Source: Anaerolineae bacterium
GTDB lineage: Bacteria; Chloroflexota; Anaerolineae; S140-20
Reading direction: 5' to 3'
DNA: 64,000 bases
Assembly (NCBI GenBank): GCA_027021705.1
Contig: JALUTT010000092.1
Coordinates: 32,001 to 96,000, forward strand
Notes under the pieces: model-generated
What the model was told of the DNA's origin: nothing
What the model saw: the letters and a program-made list of their open reading frames with translations, nothing else
Database searches by the model: none
Shown: in pieces, positions 52,198 to 56,945 of the stretch
Layout of the letters: the number at the start of each line of letters is the position of its first letter
How positions within the stretch are numbered: the stretch's first letter is position 1
Made by a program: the position numbers and the translations under genes

Positions 52198-52212
52198 GGG
52201 AACCTCCTGTTG

Positions 52213-52772
52213 TAGCGGGCTAGCGGCGTAGCGGTTAGCGGCGTAGCGGTTAGCGGCATAGCGACCTAGCGGCTGGCGGCGCAGCGGCGGACCAAGGGAT
52301 GAGGCACCGAGGACCGAGGCACTGAGGGCCGAGCGGCGTAGCGACCTAGCGGCTGGCGGCGTAGCGGCGGGCCGAGGGCTGAGGCACCGAGGACCGAGGA
52401 CTGAGGACTGTACCTCCCATCCGCTCAATCCGTTCTCAAATCCGCTGACAGCTATCCGTTCCAGGGCGACCTAACGGCAAGCAGCTTAGCGGTGGACTGA
52501 GGACTGCATAGCCGACCGCCGACGGCCGACGGCCGACCGCCGCCGGGGGAGGCACCGAGGGCTGAGGCACTGAGGGCCGAGCGGCGTAGCGACCTAGCGG
52601 CTGGCGGCGTAGCGGCGGGCCGAGGGCTGAGGCACCGAGGACCGAGGACTGAGGACTGTACCTCCCATCCGCTCAATCCGTTCTCAAATCCGCTGACAGC
52701 TATCCGTTCCAGGGCGACCTAACGGCAAGCAGCTTAGCGGCAGACTGCGGACTGCGGACTGCGGACTAAGGA
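52213..52772. repeat. composite repeat block containing a ~177 bp direct duplication (period 248)
   Basis: 52316-52492 matches 52564-52740; built from TAGCGGCG, GAGGACC/GAGGACT and ATCCGCT modules. Confidence 0.9.
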
Positions 52773-55700
52773 CTAAACACCCTTTCCACCGCCTGCAGCC
52801 GCTCCCAGGTGGCAGGGAGGCAGCCCAGCCGGGCCAGGAGGGGAACGAAGGCTCGGATGTAGCGCCAGACCTCTTCGCGGCCCCGCGCCCGCGCGGCGCG
52901 GAAGGCGGTGATGAGCCATCCGGCAGCCTGCTCCTCCCCCGGCGCGGCCACCTGGGCGAGGGCCTGGGCGACGGCGGTCAGGACCTGAGCGCGGTGCCGG
53001 TCGCTCTCAATCCTCTCTGCGGCGGCGAGGGCGTGGGTCAGCCCTTGGCGGTCTCTCACCTGGGCCAGGGCTTGGGCGACGGCGGTCAGGGCCTGGGCGT
53101 GCCAATAGATGTCCTCAATCCTCTCGGCGGCGGCGAGGACGCGGGAGAGACCCTCCCGATCGCCTACCTGGGCCATCGCCTGGGCGACGGTGGTCAGGAC
53201 TTGGGCGCGGCGCTCGGCGTCCTCAATCCTCTCGGCGGCGGCGAGGGCGCGGGCCAGGGCTTGGCGAGCCTGGTCTTTATCCCCCACCTGGGCCAAGGCC
53301 TGGGCGATGGCGACCAGGGTCTCTTGGTCCAACGCCTGGGTGACGGCAGTTAGGACCTGGGCGCGGTATCGGTTGCTCTCAATCCTCTCGGCGGCGGCGA
53401 GGGCGCGGTCGAACGCTCCCCCCTGGGCCAAGGCCTGGGCGACGGCGGTCAGGGCCTCGGCGCGCCAATAGTTGTCCTCAATCCTCTCGGCGGCGGCGAG
53501 GGCGCGGTCGAACGCTCCCCCCTGGGCCAAGGCCTGGGCGACGGCGGTCAGGGCCTGGGCGCGGCCGCTGCTCCATCGAATCCTCTCGGTGGTGACGAGG
53601 GCGCGGGCCAGGGCTTGGCGAGCCTGGTCTTTATCCCCCACCTGGGCCAAGGCCTGGGCGACGGCGGTCAGGGCCTGGGCGCGGCGCCAATCCTTCTCAA
53701 TCCTCTCGGCGGCGGCGAGAGCGCGGTCTAGGGCCTGTCGAGCCTGTTCCTGCTCCCCCACCTGGGTCATTGCCTGGGCGACGGCAGTCAGGGCCTGGGC
53801 GCCGTATCGGTTGCTCTCAATCCTCTTGGCGGCGGCGAGGGCGCGGTCCAGGGCCTGTCGAGCCCGTTCCCGCGCTCCCCCCTGGGCCAGGGCCTGGGCG
53901 ACGGCGATCAGGGCCTGGACGCGGCGCCAATCGTCCTCAATCCTCTTGGCGGCGGCGAGGGCGCGGTCGAACTCTTCCCCCTGGGCTAAGGCCTGAGCGA
54001 CGGCGGTCAGGGCCTGAGCGCGGTCATCGGTGTCCCTGATCCTCTCGGCGGCGGCGAGGGCGCGGTCCAGGGCCTCCTTCATAACCTGGTCTGTCCGCCT
54101 CCCCGTCCGCTCCCAGGCCGCCAGCCCGATCCGCCGGTAGGCCTCCGCCTGCCGCTTGGGGTCGGTAATCAGCTCCGCGTACCGCAGCGCCTGCTCCCCC
54201 TCCCCCAGCCGCGCCATCACCTCCATCGCCCCCACCGGCACCTGGGTCGCCAGCGTGCCCAGCGTTCCGTAGAGCAGGCTCCAGCCCACCACCGCTGGCA
54301 CCCCCGCCACCCCCCGCCCCTCGGCCACCTCCAGCGCCCGCTCCACATCCCGGGCGTAGGCCCGCCGGCTCGGGTCCCGCGCCCGCTGGGCCGCGTACCA
54401 CCCCCGGTCCTCGATCAGCCGCCCCAACGCCTCGAACTCCCCCGCCTTCGCCATATGCCAGCTCAGGTAGGCGTGCCCGTAGCCGTCGTCGGGCAGCGTG
54501 GACCACCGGCCCCCCCGGGTGCGGGCGCAGTAGCGGGCCACCAGTTGGGCGTGGGCCTCTCGCAGCGTCAGCCCCAGCCCCTCCGGTGGGGGGGCCACCA
54601 GCAGGCGGCGGGCCAGGCCGTGCAGCAGGTTGTGTAGGCGGTAGGTGGGCGTGCCGTCGGACAGGGGGGCACCGGGCAACAGCAGCGCCTTGTGATACAG
54701 GTAGCGCAGGCCGTCACGCGCCTCTCGCTCCTCCTTCCACCACACCGTCGCCATCATCGTCGGGGTCAGGCTTATGTCCTCCGGCAGCACCCCCAGCCTG
54801 GCGAACTGCTCCCGTCGCGCTTCCGGCAGCTGGCGCAGGCTCAAGTTGAAAGAAGCTAGTAGGCTGAGCCGCTTGCGGATCGTTTCGTCGGTCTCCCCCT
54901 CGGCTTCCGGCAACTCCAGCGCCTCCGGCCGGGCGATCTCCGCCTGCAGGTCGGCCAGCAAGTCCGCCCAGGGCACCCCGTCGTTCACCTGGGCGGCGGC
55001 CAACTCCAGGGCCAGGGGCAGGTAGCCCACCGCCTCGGCCAGGGCCAGCGCCTGCTCCCGTTCCCCCTCGGCCAGGGAGCGGTCCAGCTTCTTGATCAGG
55101 AGCGCCAGCGCCTGCTCCGGCGTCATCACCTCTAGGGCGTAGAGCGTGGCCCCCACCGCATTGGCGATGACCGCCTCGCGGGTGGTGATGAGGACCCGGC
55201 AGCGGGGGCCGCCCACCAGGAAGGGGCGGACGTGGGCCGGCTCCCAGGCGTCGTCCACCACCAGCAGGCAGGCCCGGTCGTGCAGCAGGCTGCGCAGGTG
55301 GGCCGAGGCCGACTCGATGAGGGGAAGGCGGAAGCTGCGGTCCCCCAGGGCGTAGATCCAGCCCAGCAGCAGCTCGGCCAGGTCCGGCTGCTGACCCAGC
55401 GTGGCCCAGAGGACGCCGTCGGGGAAGCGGGCCTGCACGTCGGGGTCGTGGGCCAGGGCGGCGGCCAAGGTGGACTTGCCGATGCCCTCCAGGCCGTGGA
55501 TGGCGCTGACGACGAGGACGCCGGAGGAGGGCCGGCCGTCGTCCAGGAGCCGGGCCTTGAGCGCCTCGCTCACCTCGGGCCGGGGAACAAAGTGGGCCGG
55601 CAACGGCGGGGCCTGGGTGAGGTAGGTGGGGCCGGGCTCCACCACCGGTGGGGGTGGAGCGGTGGGACGGCGCTCGAGGAGGGCCGCGATCTGGACGATC

Positions 55701-55906
55701 TCGTCATCGAGGGGAACGTCCAGCCTCTCGCAGAGCGAGCGGTACTCCTCCAGTTTCCCCCCGATGAGCGTCCGCAGCCTTTTAATCTCCCGACGGGCGC
55801 GTCGCCTCTCCGTCGGCCTGTCGGAATCGCGCACGATCTCTTCGTGCTCCCTGATCAGGGCATACATCTCTCGGATGTCACGTTCGAGATCGTCCTTGGG
55901 TGCCAT
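52766..55906 (-). CDS. NLR-like STAND NTPase: short helical N-terminus, NB-ARC, APAF-1-like helical region and ~10 TPR-like repeats
   Basis: GLEGIGKST, LLVVDDAW, LITTR, GYLPLALEL, YRLHNLLH; repeats ALAAAERIExxxxRAQALTAVAQALAQ. Confidence 0.88.
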   Translation of the reverse strand: MAPKDDLERDIREMYALIREHEEIVRDSDRPTERRRARREIKRLRTLIGGKLEEYRSLCERLDVPLDDEIVQIAALLERRPTAPPPPVVEPGPTYLTQAPPLPAHFVPRPEVSEALKARLLDDGRPSSGVLVVSAIHGLEGIGKSTLAAALAHDPDVQARFPDGVLWATLGQQPDLAELLLGWIYALGDRSFRLPLIESASAHLRSLLHDRACLLVVDDAWEPAHVRPFLVGGPRCRVLITTREAVIANAVGATLYALEVMTPEQALALLIKKLDRSLAEGEREQALALAEAVGYLPLALELAAAQVNDGVPWADLLADLQAEIARPEALELPEAEGETDETIRKRLSLLASFNLSLRQLPEARREQFARLGVLPEDISLTPTMMATVWWKEEREARDGLRYLYHKALLLPGAPLSDGTPTYRLHNLLHGLARRLLVAPPPEGLGLTLREAHAQLVARYCARTRGGRWSTLPDDGYGHAYLSWHMAKAGEFEALGRLIEDRGWYAAQRARDPSRRAYARDVERALEVAEGRGVAGVPAVVGWSLLYGTLGTLATQVPVGAMEVMARLGEGEQALRYAELITDPKRQAEAYRRIGLAAWERTGRRTDQVMKEALDRALAAAERIRDTDDRAQALTAVAQALAQGEEFDRALAAAKRIEDDWRRVQALIAVAQALAQGGARERARQALDRALAAAKRIESNRYGAQALTAVAQAMTQVGEQEQARQALDRALAAAERIEKDWRRAQALTAVAQALAQVGDKDQARQALARALVTTERIRWSSGRAQALTAVAQALAQGGAFDRALAAAERIEDNYWRAEALTAVAQALAQGGAFDRALAAAERIESNRYRAQVLTAVTQALDQETLVAIAQALAQVGDKDQARQALARALAAAERIEDAERRAQVLTTVAQAMAQVGDREGLSRVLAAAERIEDIYWHAQALTAVAQALAQVRDRQGLTHALAAAERIESDRHRAQVLTAVAQALAQVAAPGEEQAAGWLITAFRAARARGREEVWRYIRAFVPLLARLGCLPATWERLQAVERVFSP

Positions 55907-56007
55907 CGCTGCCCCTCACAGGTTCCTCGGTCCTCGGTCCTCGGCCCTCATCCCTCGGCCCTCAGCCCTCAGCCCGCCGCCACGCCGCTACGCCGCTAGC
56001 CGCTACA

Positions 56008-56037
56008 AGTATACCACACCTCCCGACGACCTTGCAA
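56008..56037 (-). promoter_or_regulatory. putative promoter of the NLR-like gene
   Basis: TTGCAA-N18-TATACT with extended TG; a similar segment recurs at 56343-56371. Confidence 0.5.
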
Positions 56038-56199
56038 CCGCCCCTCACTGGGAGATAGCTGTCAACGGATTAGGGGGAGCGGATTGAACGGATTCGGAAT
56101 CCCCTAGGTGAAGCGCCGGTCCCTCCCGTCGTCTCCCATCCGCTCAATCCGTTCCTGAATCCGCTGACAGCCATCCGCTCCAAATCTGGGTCTTGCTTG

Positions 56200-56945
56200 A
56201 GGGCAGCACCGGCCTGGAAGCGCCGGTGCTGGGGGGTCGGCGGGGCAGCACCGGCCTGAAGCGCCGGTGCTGGGGGCGGCGAGGCGGTCCGCCGTCGGCG
56301 GTCTGCATCGTGTCTTTCCCCATCCGTGGTGCTCTCCTCCCAAGTATACCACGCCTTCCCACGACATCCAACACCCTCCCGCAGGCCACGCCGTGGAGAT
56401 GGGCAGCACCGGCCTGAAGCGCCGGTGCTGGGGGAAAATGAACCCAGCCCCGCCGGTTCGACGGCCCCCCAGCCCCGCCTGTTTGACGGCGGGGCGGTGG
56501 CGGTGGCAGCACCGGCCTGAAGCGCCAGTGCTGGGGGAAATGAACCCAGCCCCGCCTGTTTGACGGCGGGGCGGCTTCCCGCATCCCCCAGCCCCACCTG
56601 TTTGACGGCGGGGCGATGGCGGCGGGGCGGTGCCTGGAAGCGCCGGTGCTGGGGGAAGTGAACCCAGCCCCGCCTGTTCGACGGCGGGGCGGTGCCTGGA
56701 AGCGCCGGTGCTGGGGGAAAATGAACCCAGCCCCGCCTGTTCGACGGCGGGGCGGCTTCCCGCATCCCCCAGCCCCGCCTGTTCGACGGCGGGGCGGCTT
56801 CCCGCATCCCCCAGCCCCGCCTGTTTGACGGCGGGGCGGCTTCCCGCATCCCCCAGCCCCGCCTGTTTGACGGCCCCCCAGCCCCGCCGGTTCACGGCGG
56901 GGCGGTGGGCGGTGCCACGGCGGGGCGGTGGCGGCGGGGCGGCTT
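56200..56945. repeat. BIME-like mosaic array of GC-rich hairpins
   Basis: Recurrent CAGCACCGGCCTGAAGCGCCGGTGCTGGGG and CCCAGCCCCGCCTGTTYGACGGCGGGGCGG modules joined by fixed linkers. Confidence 0.88.

Follow-up and report, generated by a model that had tools for sequence, protein, structure and literature searches.

Architecture of the receptor gene

We analysed a stretch of 64,000 nucleotides (the window) from the Anaerolineae bacterium assembly GCA_027021705.1 (contig JALUTT010000092.1, positions 32,001 to 96,000 of the forward strand), focusing on a gene for a putative receptor of the NOD-like receptor (NLR) type. A single open reading frame (ORF) of 1046 amino acids plus stop fills positions 52766..55906 of the window on the reverse strand. 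Its product is composed, in this order, of a helical N-terminal domain (N-domain), an NB-ARC STAND ATPase, further helical domains, an α-solenoid of ten repeat units and a C-terminal cap (Table 1). A preliminary description of the gene saw in it an NLR-like receptor with near-identical repeats carrying a hypervariable patch, and proposed a recombination-diversified immune sensor that signals through an adaptor domain to an effector encoded elsewhere.

The array of repeats and its hypervariable patch

Repeat units start at residues 615, 648, 688, 728, 768, 801, 834, 886, 922 and 958, with spacings of 33, 40, 40, 40, 33, 33, 52, 36 and 36 residues followed by the last unit, and Tandem Repeats Finder detects periods of 99, 108, 120 and 240 nt in the array. 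The ten units (R1-R10), which are 33, 36, 40 or 52 residues long and occupy positions 52952-54064, agree with the about 10 repeats described earlier at ~52950-54075. For repeat statistics we used a core of 28 codons, divided into 24 framework columns and four patch columns (columns 11-14). Entropy is 1.7-2.45 bits in the patch columns, compared with 0-0.9 bits in the framework. These four adjacent columns carry 8.9 of the 18.5 bits of amino-acid entropy of the entire core, and equal entropy in any four adjacent columns was obtained in 120 of 100000 column shuffles. The patch had been described as five residues long. All of the patches listed at that time are present, but the truly variable patch comprises four residues, because the residue listed first, which precedes it, is E in 8 of the 10 repeats.

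Between units, the framework is 88% identical at the nucleotide and 82% at the amino-acid level, and the patch 44% and 16%, respectively; mean amino-acid identity over the 28-residue core is 73%. The units are thus highly similar in their framework, as claimed before, but not near-identical. The proportion of nonsynonymous differences (pN) in the patch is 0.58, about three times the proportion of synonymous differences (pS) in the framework (0.18) and about six times framework pN (0.09). Composition of the patch is also distinct: W and Y make up 9 of its 40 residues as opposed to 32 of 1006 residues elsewhere (Fisher p 1e-5), and D, N and S are abundant as well.

An AlphaFold2 model of residues 556-1046, based on 41 aligned homologs (mean predicted local distance difference test score, pLDDT, 87.9; predicted template-modelling score 0.76), is all helical and consists of 27 helices forming a helix-turn-helix solenoid. 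In 10 of 10 units of this model, the patch corresponds to the last residue of the turn between helices A and B and the first three residues of helix B. Unit R7 (window 53252-53407, residues 834-885), 52 residues long, has a partial duplication of helix B (TAVTQALDQETLVAIAQALAQ), and model confidence falls to about 70 there. The Pfam family TPR_12 matches the C-terminal half of the protein with 36.6 bits (cut-off 30.1, E 5.4e-9). Foldseek searches with the sensor model retrieved designed repeat proteins, Ton1535 (3zpj) and TPR domains of OGT, LGN and APC/C, with E about 1e-5 and template-modelling (TM) scores of 0.2-0.3. 'TPR-like α-solenoid' is a fair name for these repeats, as both a Pfam match to the TPR clan and a two-helix solenoid fold are present; the earlier label of TPR-like repeats stands in this sense, although TM scores of the TPR solenoids are low. 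Ton1535 of Thermococcus onnurineus, third in the Foldseek ranking, is also the best match to the repeats by sequence among solved structures (E 1.9e-8) and features the same pattern of helix, I-E/D-x-x-x-x turn and helix. It differs in being a stand-alone archaeal protein of unknown function, which has divergent repeats and no STAND module.

Possible exchange between repeat units

Comparison of individual segments revealed that relationships among the units are mosaic. The patch codons of R3 and R7 are identical (0 of 12 nt different), while their helices B are among the most different (9 of 42 nt). Conversely, R4 and R5 have identical helices B (0 of 42 nt different) with patches differing at 8 of 12 nt, and R2 and R3 have helix A in common, with patches again differing at 8 of 12 nt. 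Reuse of patches, pointed out in the preliminary description, is also seen at the codon level in the pairs R2/R4 (2 of 12 nt different) and R6/R9 (1 of 12). Linker types (GGAF, VGDKDQARQAL and others) pair with different patches, so that patch, helix and linker types assort independently among the repeats.

The nearest database protein, P0002 (1013 aa), is residue-for-residue identical to the window protein except that exactly one 33-residue unit, R6, is absent. In one contig of run X2 the array is joined at a different point ('goes back 264', side 115), possibly an assembly effect, and contigs of run X1 agree with long parts of the array without a single difference. None of the public contigs, which break within the array, spans it, and among the differences listed for the covered parts there is no unit insertion or deletion. 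Variation in the number and order of units is suggested by these data, with the reservation that short-read assembly could create or hide such differences. Diversification by recombination, as proposed originally, is thus backed by the mosaic segments and by P0002, which lacks exactly one unit, but falls short of proof.

Hypermutation of the type caused by diversity-generating retroelements can be rejected: no repeat template is present outside coding arrays (repeat DNA matches in the genome only itself and, at 65% identity, one other coding array, on contig C52), and the contig of the receptor gene lacks a reverse transcriptase. The sole RVT_1 reverse transcriptase of the genome (contig C85:82970-83584, a 317-aa frame) lies 21 kb from the CRISPR and adaptor genes of its contig, which are described below.

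Related arrays in the genome and in public data

The genome encodes two paralogs with arrays of the same kind. The closest one, composed of EAD10, NB-ARC and APAF1_C, is 59% identical over residues 62-713 and has 8 units before being cut by the contig end; the position of the N-domain is occupied in this paralog by the named effector-associated domain (EAD) EAD10. The other is a NACHT protein of 1761 aa (L060:438-5720, contig C52), which has 25 units of the same type as well as the same pre-repeat region and C-terminal cap. Variability in both arrays peaks once more at columns 11-14, and some patches are used repeatedly, e.g. GEWS six times and GERY four times. The C52 array has only 10 distinct patches, reused in recurring orders, which suggests either block duplications or assembly effects. 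Look-alike repeats also occur on a different fold: an NB-ARC protein of 1474 aa (L029:962-5386, contig C144) carries a long series of WD40 blades, very similar and differing at few positions, and is a β-propeller counterpart of the phenomenon. Another gene coding for the adaptor and NB-ARC, together with TPR genes, is located 7-11 kb downstream of this WD40 gene.

Among 8000 candidates scored, 1205 are relatives of the full-length protein at E<=0.001, mostly from Nostocales and Chloroflexi-type bacteria. The consensus unit of these homologs retains the framework, and the positions following the conserved I are undefined. According to precomputed labels, 13 of which were re-scanned, the N-terminal slot is EAD4 in 50 of the 120 NB-ARC relatives listed, and EAD1, EAD10, TIR, CHAT, caspase, trypsin or Mrr in others. 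A search for orthologs in metagenome contigs returned the window's own contig only.

A STAND ATPase of the Apaf-1 type

NB-ARC is recognized by Pfam with 69.4 bits (cut-off 23.5, E 3.8e-19), and an APAF1_C-like helical domain at 22.3 bits, just below the cut-off of 22.8. The N-terminal 555 residues have AfsR (E 7e-28) as their first match in the collection of solved structures; Apaf-1 chains align through their residues 119-513 to residues 99-507 (E 4e-18), and plant NLRs rank next. The Apaf-1 alignment covers a winged-helix and an HD2 helical domain following the NTPase, as in Apaf-1 itself. The motifs GLEGIGKS, LLVVDD, TTR and GYLPLA, which we take to be Walker A, Walker B, sensor TTR and GLPL, respectively, are intact. 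Based on the Pfam match, structural relatives and motifs, the protein is by sequence a bona fide Apaf-1-type (NB-ARC/AP-ATPase) STAND ATPase, and its earlier assignment as NLR-like holds.

At residues 424-427 (window 54626-54637), the protein has LHN where the homolog consensus YRLHDLxHDLA has LHD, and the second D is replaced by G. Variant P0002 has the same letters at this site. In plant NLRs, the motif at the LHD position affects autoinhibition.

The N-domain represents an adaptor-like family

The N-domain (about 75-79 aa) is modelled as three helices with pLDDT of 89.6, and no enzyme was matched, just as the about 80-residue helical N-terminus had been described before. Pfam gives no match to residues 1-93 even at E<=1. 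A Foldseek search against the PDB returned 0 matches at E<=0.001, the best being plain helical hairpins, e.g. EncB (E 0.6), and the best score in an ESM Atlas look-up (0.79) was under the useful range. A death fold was rejected, because the PDB search gave only such generic hairpins, and signalling through an amyloid motif (BASS/Bell) is unsupported, the N-terminus being a confident helical domain.

The preliminary description suggested looking for this domain on other proteins of the genome, and 10 further copies were found at E<=0.0012. One forms the C-terminus of a CHAT protease, and three others the N-termini of an NB-ARC, an AAA_16+TPR and a P-loop protein; the remainder are on a protein with a transmembrane segment and SH3, on small coiled-coil-like proteins, and on the products of two adjacent genes in a type III CRISPR-Cas locus. 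The latter two (L031:5127-9042, contig C85; one TPR, one coiled-coil-like) both end in the N-domain, and are flanked by a RAMP gene and by DUF4062+Cas_NE0113 and Cas6 genes. In 10 of the 11 own-genome proteins the domain occupies one end of the chain, and its start at residues 18-20 of L030 stems from the use of the earliest start codon.

A profile of the 11 copies retrieved 894 clusters at E<=1e-3, and 339 at E<=1e-10, from 1.84 billion representatives; the sole named relative comes from an Anaerolineae metagenome-assembled genome. In most of the best 150 public matches the domain begins within the first 9 residues. We scanned 149 of them (P0002 was left out) for fusion partners using Pfam at E<=1e-5. 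A Pfam family is present in 61 of the 149, and none of these families covers the N-domain itself. The partners are EAD7 (18), STAND/AAA ATPases (10), Peptidase_C14 (9), FGE-sulfatase (8), CHAT (4), TIR_2 (4) and bDLD1 (4), followed by PNP_UDP_1 (2) and by Trypsin_2, EAD2, EAD9 and TRADD-N (1 each). Direct fusions of the N-domain to FGE-sulfatase, a C-type-lectin fold, are found in P0191, P0192, P0212, P0223, P0234, P0237, P0238 and P0247, and in L043, L046 and L056. The FGE/C-type-lectin fold is the one mutated by diversity-generating retroelements in putative antigen sensors of multicellular bacteria, and diversified sensor targets can bear uncharacterised N-terminal extensions (PMC10907252).

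Within the class, the N-domain is present in 10 of 301 genomes, with 11, 8, 7, 4, 3, 2, 1, 1, 1 and 1 copies, a patchy, multi-copy distribution in a class whose members are mostly filamentous. In four other genomes, 19 of 20 ORFs with the domain were scanned with Pfam (L042, which has an internal stop, was left out). Carriers are NB-ARC+TPR, CHAT, caspase and FGE-sulfatase proteins in G164; NB-ARC+TPR, cyclase+AAA_16+TPR, TIR, HD-CE and FGE-sulfatase proteins in G132; FGE-sulfatase and EAD8+trypsin proteins in G053; and a CHAT+TPR protein in G099.

None of the named EAD or bDLD Pfam models matches the N-domain (E<=0.05 for the own-genome copies). Its hhalign probability against EAD1, 2, 4, 7, 9, 10 and bDLD1, represented by profiles of 1-17 sequences, is at most 2.3%, compared with 100% for the split-half positive control; EAD5, 6, 8 and 11 were compared through Pfam only. 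As a small, terminal and multi-copy domain found both on STAND ATPases and on effector enzymes within single genomes, it has the traits that define EADs in the work of Kaur et al. (PMC7159879, PMC8195603), and appears to behave as a new EAD-type adaptor. It lies outside the EAD families of Kaur et al. as held in Pfam, and the supplementary alignments of PMC7159879 and PMC8195603 might hold an earlier name for it. Signalling to an effector encoded elsewhere, as originally proposed, is supported by the 10 further copies, in particular the one at the CHAT C-terminus, by the carriers in other genomes and by the public fusions.

Candidate partner and genomic context

We predicted the complex of the NLR N-domain with the C-terminal copy of the CHAT protease. 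The median score was 0.43 (runs 0.00, 0.43 and 0.47), and the best of 3 controls scored 0.00; contact agreement between runs was at least 0% and partner pLDDT at least 77. Of 157 solved complexes, 116 reach the score mark, as do 2 of 215 mismatched pairs, and scores of 0.60 or under include only 18 of the 157 solved complexes and both passing mismatches. These predictions weakly suggest that the two copies may bind each other. In a domain tree (79 columns), which is poorly resolved (1 of 27 inner branches starred), own-genome copies cluster as a group, requiring 3 label changes, compared with a mean of 9.2 after shuffling and 0 of 500 shuffles as low; for G164 copies, with 8 label changes, 500 of 500 shuffles are as low, i.e. 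there is no clustering.

Both flanks of the gene (window 52212-52766 and 55925-56900) consist of simple tandem arrays with units of 7, 8, 14/15 and 25 nt, and also hold a 248-nt direct repeat (1.8 copies, 97% matches). The 19-nt core of a dispersed repeat is located at 52417, 52665 and 56136, its only copies on the 117-kb contig, and has 237 copies in the genome when up to 2 mismatches are allowed. A link of this 19-mer to NLR or adaptor genes is unconvincing, with 3 of 21 such genes within 1.5 kb of a copy, compared with 6% of random intervals. Coordinates of all features are given in Table 1.

Table 1. Features of the receptor gene in the window (aa, residues of the 1046-aa product).
Feature	Position	Strand	Remarks
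Whole ORF: N-domain, NB-ARC STAND ATPase, repeat sensor, C-terminal cap	52766..55906	-	1046 aa + stop
N-terminal adaptor-like domain, aa 1-79	55670..55906	-	predicted helices 3-27, 31-62, 68-79; without Pfam model
Proline-rich linker, aa 80-113	55568..55669	-	from sequence; pLDDT low at residues 81-93
NB-ARC domain, aa 114-305	54992..55567	-	presumed Walker A GLEGIGKS 138, Walker B LLVVDD 214, TTR 241, GYLPLA 294
Region aligned to Apaf-1 NBD-HD1-WHD-HD2, aa 99-507	54386..55612	-	APAF1_C-like helical domain aa 448-506; LHNL at 424
Helical pre-repeat region, aa 508-614	54065..54385	-	common to NACHT paralog on contig C52
Array of ten two-helix repeats, aa 615-985	52952..54064	-	repeat finding and structure model
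Patch R1 DTDD	54023..54034	-	
Patch R2 DDWR	53924..53935	-	
Patch R3 SNRY	53804..53815	-	
Patch R4 KDWR	53684..53695	-	
Patch R5 WSSG	53564..53575	-	
Patch R6 DNYW	53465..53476	-	unit missing in variant P0002
Patch R7 SNRY	53366..53377	-	52-aa unit, helix B partly duplicated
Patch R8 DAER	53210..53221	-	
Patch R9 DIYW	53102..53113	-	
Patch R10 SDRH	52994..53005	-	
C-terminal helical cap, aa 986-1046	52769..52951	-	conserved in C52 paralog and distant homologs

Comparison with known systems

The EAD principle has been formulated for bacterial AP-ATPase/STAND conflict systems (Kaur, Burroughs, Iyer and Aravind 2020, PMC7159879; Kaur et al. 2021, PMC8195603). As far as the passages on these systems go, the window protein resembles them in several respects: a small non-catalytic helical terminal domain on a STAND core recurs on caspase/CHAT, TIR and trypsin proteins of the same genome, its distribution is patchy and multi-copy in multicellular lineages, and superstructure-forming C-terminal repeats are the presumed sensor. 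It differs in that the N-domain matches no Pfam EAD/bDLD model and no partner gene is adjacent, the latter arrangement being frequent but not obligatory in EAD systems. The same passages contain no description of a repeat patch like the one found here.

Fungal NLRs with highly internally conserved (HIC) WD40, ANK or TPR repeats, such as Podospora HET-E/NWD, are described by Dyrka et al. 2014 (PMC4986451), and internally conserved WD/TPR repeats have been noted in bacterial NLRs together with the suggestion of a like diversification (bioRxiv 10.1101/2020.01.06.895854). In common with the fungal proteins, as portrayed in those sections of PMC4986451, the window protein combines NB-ARC (or NACHT in the paralog) with very similar tandem repeats, variation at few positions, probable shuffling of repeats and possible changes in unit number. 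Unlike them, it has a bacterial host, a unit of 33-40 aa rather than the 42-aa TPR type, and an adaptor in place of HET/HeLo-type N-domains. With variation concentrated at few positions and an excess of amino-acid changes, these repeats, judged from their sequence, probably work like HIC repeats, but are more diverged.

The likeness to the Apaf-1 apoptosome (PDB 1z6t, 3jbt and others) extends over NBD-HD1-WHD-HD2 (residues 99-507) and includes an N-terminal adaptor and a C-terminal repeat sensor, but the adaptor is of a three-helix hairpin type rather than a six-helix CARD, and the sensor is an α-solenoid rather than WD40. Avs proteins, as presented in the cited part of PMC13581612, sense conserved phage proteins through extended shape-complementary interfaces; they share with the window protein the STAND ATPase, the tripartite layout and a C-terminal helical sensor, which in Avs binds a protein ligand, whereas the window protein stands apart by its adaptor and by a sensor that is internally repetitive and variable in its patches.

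Within the limits of the cited passages, patch-variable repeats in fungal NLRs, a brief mention of them in bacteria, and adaptor-coupled STAND systems (Kaur et al.) are already known. New are the 33-40-aa unit with a variable patch at the A-B turn, the sensor module common to NB-ARC and NACHT proteins of one genome, and the unnamed adaptor family of about 900 clusters.

Function and alternative explanations

Taken together, comparative evidence makes an immune or kin-recognition sensor the most likely function of the protein, with a probability of about 0.6, and it supports the preliminary interpretation as a whole; an immune role is suggested by family context, and the ligand and its binding are putative. 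Of the three outcomes named in advance as contradicting that interpretation, namely, invariant repeats, buried variable residues and an N-domain without partners, none was found. In the proposed mechanism, the ten patches in a row would form a ligand-contacting stripe of the solenoid. Duplication and deletion of units and exchange of short tracts between units, perhaps also between paralogs, would yield new patch combinations and, with them, new specificities. Once a foreign or non-kin protein is bound, autoinhibition would be released and NB-ARC could oligomerise with nucleotide. The clustered N-domains might then recruit proteins with the same domain by like-with-like contacts, in the way CARD acts within the apoptosome and effector-associated domains of bacteria have been proposed to act. 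The clearest candidate recruit in the genome would be the CHAT (caspase-like) protease on contig C120.

A more general proposal, which we rate at somewhat less than an even chance, is that the N-domain constitutes a further unnamed family of homotypic adaptors analogous to Death domains, serving as a genome-wide hub in Anaerolineae-type filamentous bacteria. Repeat-shuffling NB-ARC/NACHT receptors, FGE-type sensors with the lectin fold and proteins of a type III CRISPR locus would then act as sensors that share caspase-like, TIR, trypsin and HD effectors, and shuffling of solenoid units would provide a fast-changing repertoire.

Several observations weigh against the mechanism proposed above for the receptor. 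Within the patch, which is saturated, pN/pS amounts to only 1.17, so that positive selection falls short of formal demonstration; the repeat-level dN/dS comparison proposed earlier reveals the excess of patch pN over framework pS, but no formal ω above 1. Unit identity is below the HIC threshold in the relevant section of PMC4986451 (>85% over at least 100 aa), be it over the core or the framework. PADLOC matches no Avs model and gives only a weak hit of PDLC01173 STAND_TPR on the repeats (E 1.1e-12). The exposure of the patches and their continuity as a stripe would follow from position in the predicted secondary structure alone. Ortholog searches of genome-collection contigs yielded 25 pattern matches, 0 of which were confirmed, and among 31 genomes (this one and 30 relatives) 8 have an NB-ARC match at E<=1e-20, none covering both N-domain and array. 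The missing unit in P0002 and the junction in the X2 contig could be assembly artefacts. In the poorly resolved domain tree the NLR copy stands apart from the CHAT copy, and the tree therefore leaves the specific partner unassigned. Finally, the gene is flanked by a ketopantoate-reductase-like gene on one side and trpCF-trpD-trpG on the other; without an effector gene next to it, an operon gives no indication of the partner.

An alternative to virus sensing is kin recognition or allorecognition between filaments, similar to fungal heterokaryon incompatibility, with the patches reading a polymorphic protein of the same species. Of the repeat behaviours described, that of fungal HET/NWD NLRs in the sections of PMC4986451 cited above comes closest, the same possibility is put forward by Dore et al. 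(PMC10907252) for multicellular bacteria with diversified sensors, and a patchy, multi-copy N-domain in mostly filamentous bacteria would fit. We nevertheless consider it unlikely, as caspase, TIR and trypsin partners and the type III CRISPR context suit anti-invader systems at least equally well, and no polymorphic partner locus has been identified.

Still less likely, the protein may be a housekeeping or regulatory STAND scaffold similar to AfsR or MalT, in which the patch varies as an unconstrained loop and gene conversion homogenises the rest. AfsR is indeed the best match in NCBIfam and, by sequence, in the PDB; the flanking genes are housekeeping ones, and the patch pN/pS is not clearly different from neutrality. 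However, the AfsR match spans the ATPase module only (119.7 bits vs the family cut-off of 1430), and the Pfam scan detected no DNA-binding or BTAD domain. Moreover, enrichment of the patch in W and Y is typical of binding sites, the same columns vary in two paralogous arrays, and the fusion partners of the N-domain are effectors of the cell-death type.

Least probable of all is that, in an otherwise real gene, unit number, unit order and patch reuse arose in part when near-repeats were assembled from short metagenome reads: the genome was itself assembled from a metagenome, into 183 contigs, the array of the closest paralog stops at the end of contig C51, no public contig spans the window's array and P0002 could be a collapsed assembly, but the X1 contigs agree with long stretches of the array, the hypervariable columns and distinct patches are independent of unit order, and hundreds of homologs display the same pattern.

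Implications

Bacterial NLR-like proteins are thought to be ancestral to immune receptors of animals, plants and fungi. Avs proteins have fused effectors and non-repetitive sensors, and to our knowledge almost all bacterial NLR-like proteins tested so far (Avs, bNACHT) combine fused effectors with fixed sensors. The putative sensor described here brings together two features best known from eukaryotes, namely, a sensor of look-alike units with a variable patch, which could be reshuffled, and a separate docking domain instead of a fused enzyme. A model of the N-domain would annotate many N-termini of 'hypothetical' proteins and, for uncultured filamentous bacteria, link sensors to effectors. 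Given the small size of the domain and its multiple copies in one genome, the like-with-like binding assumed by the bacterial adaptor hypothesis becomes directly testable.

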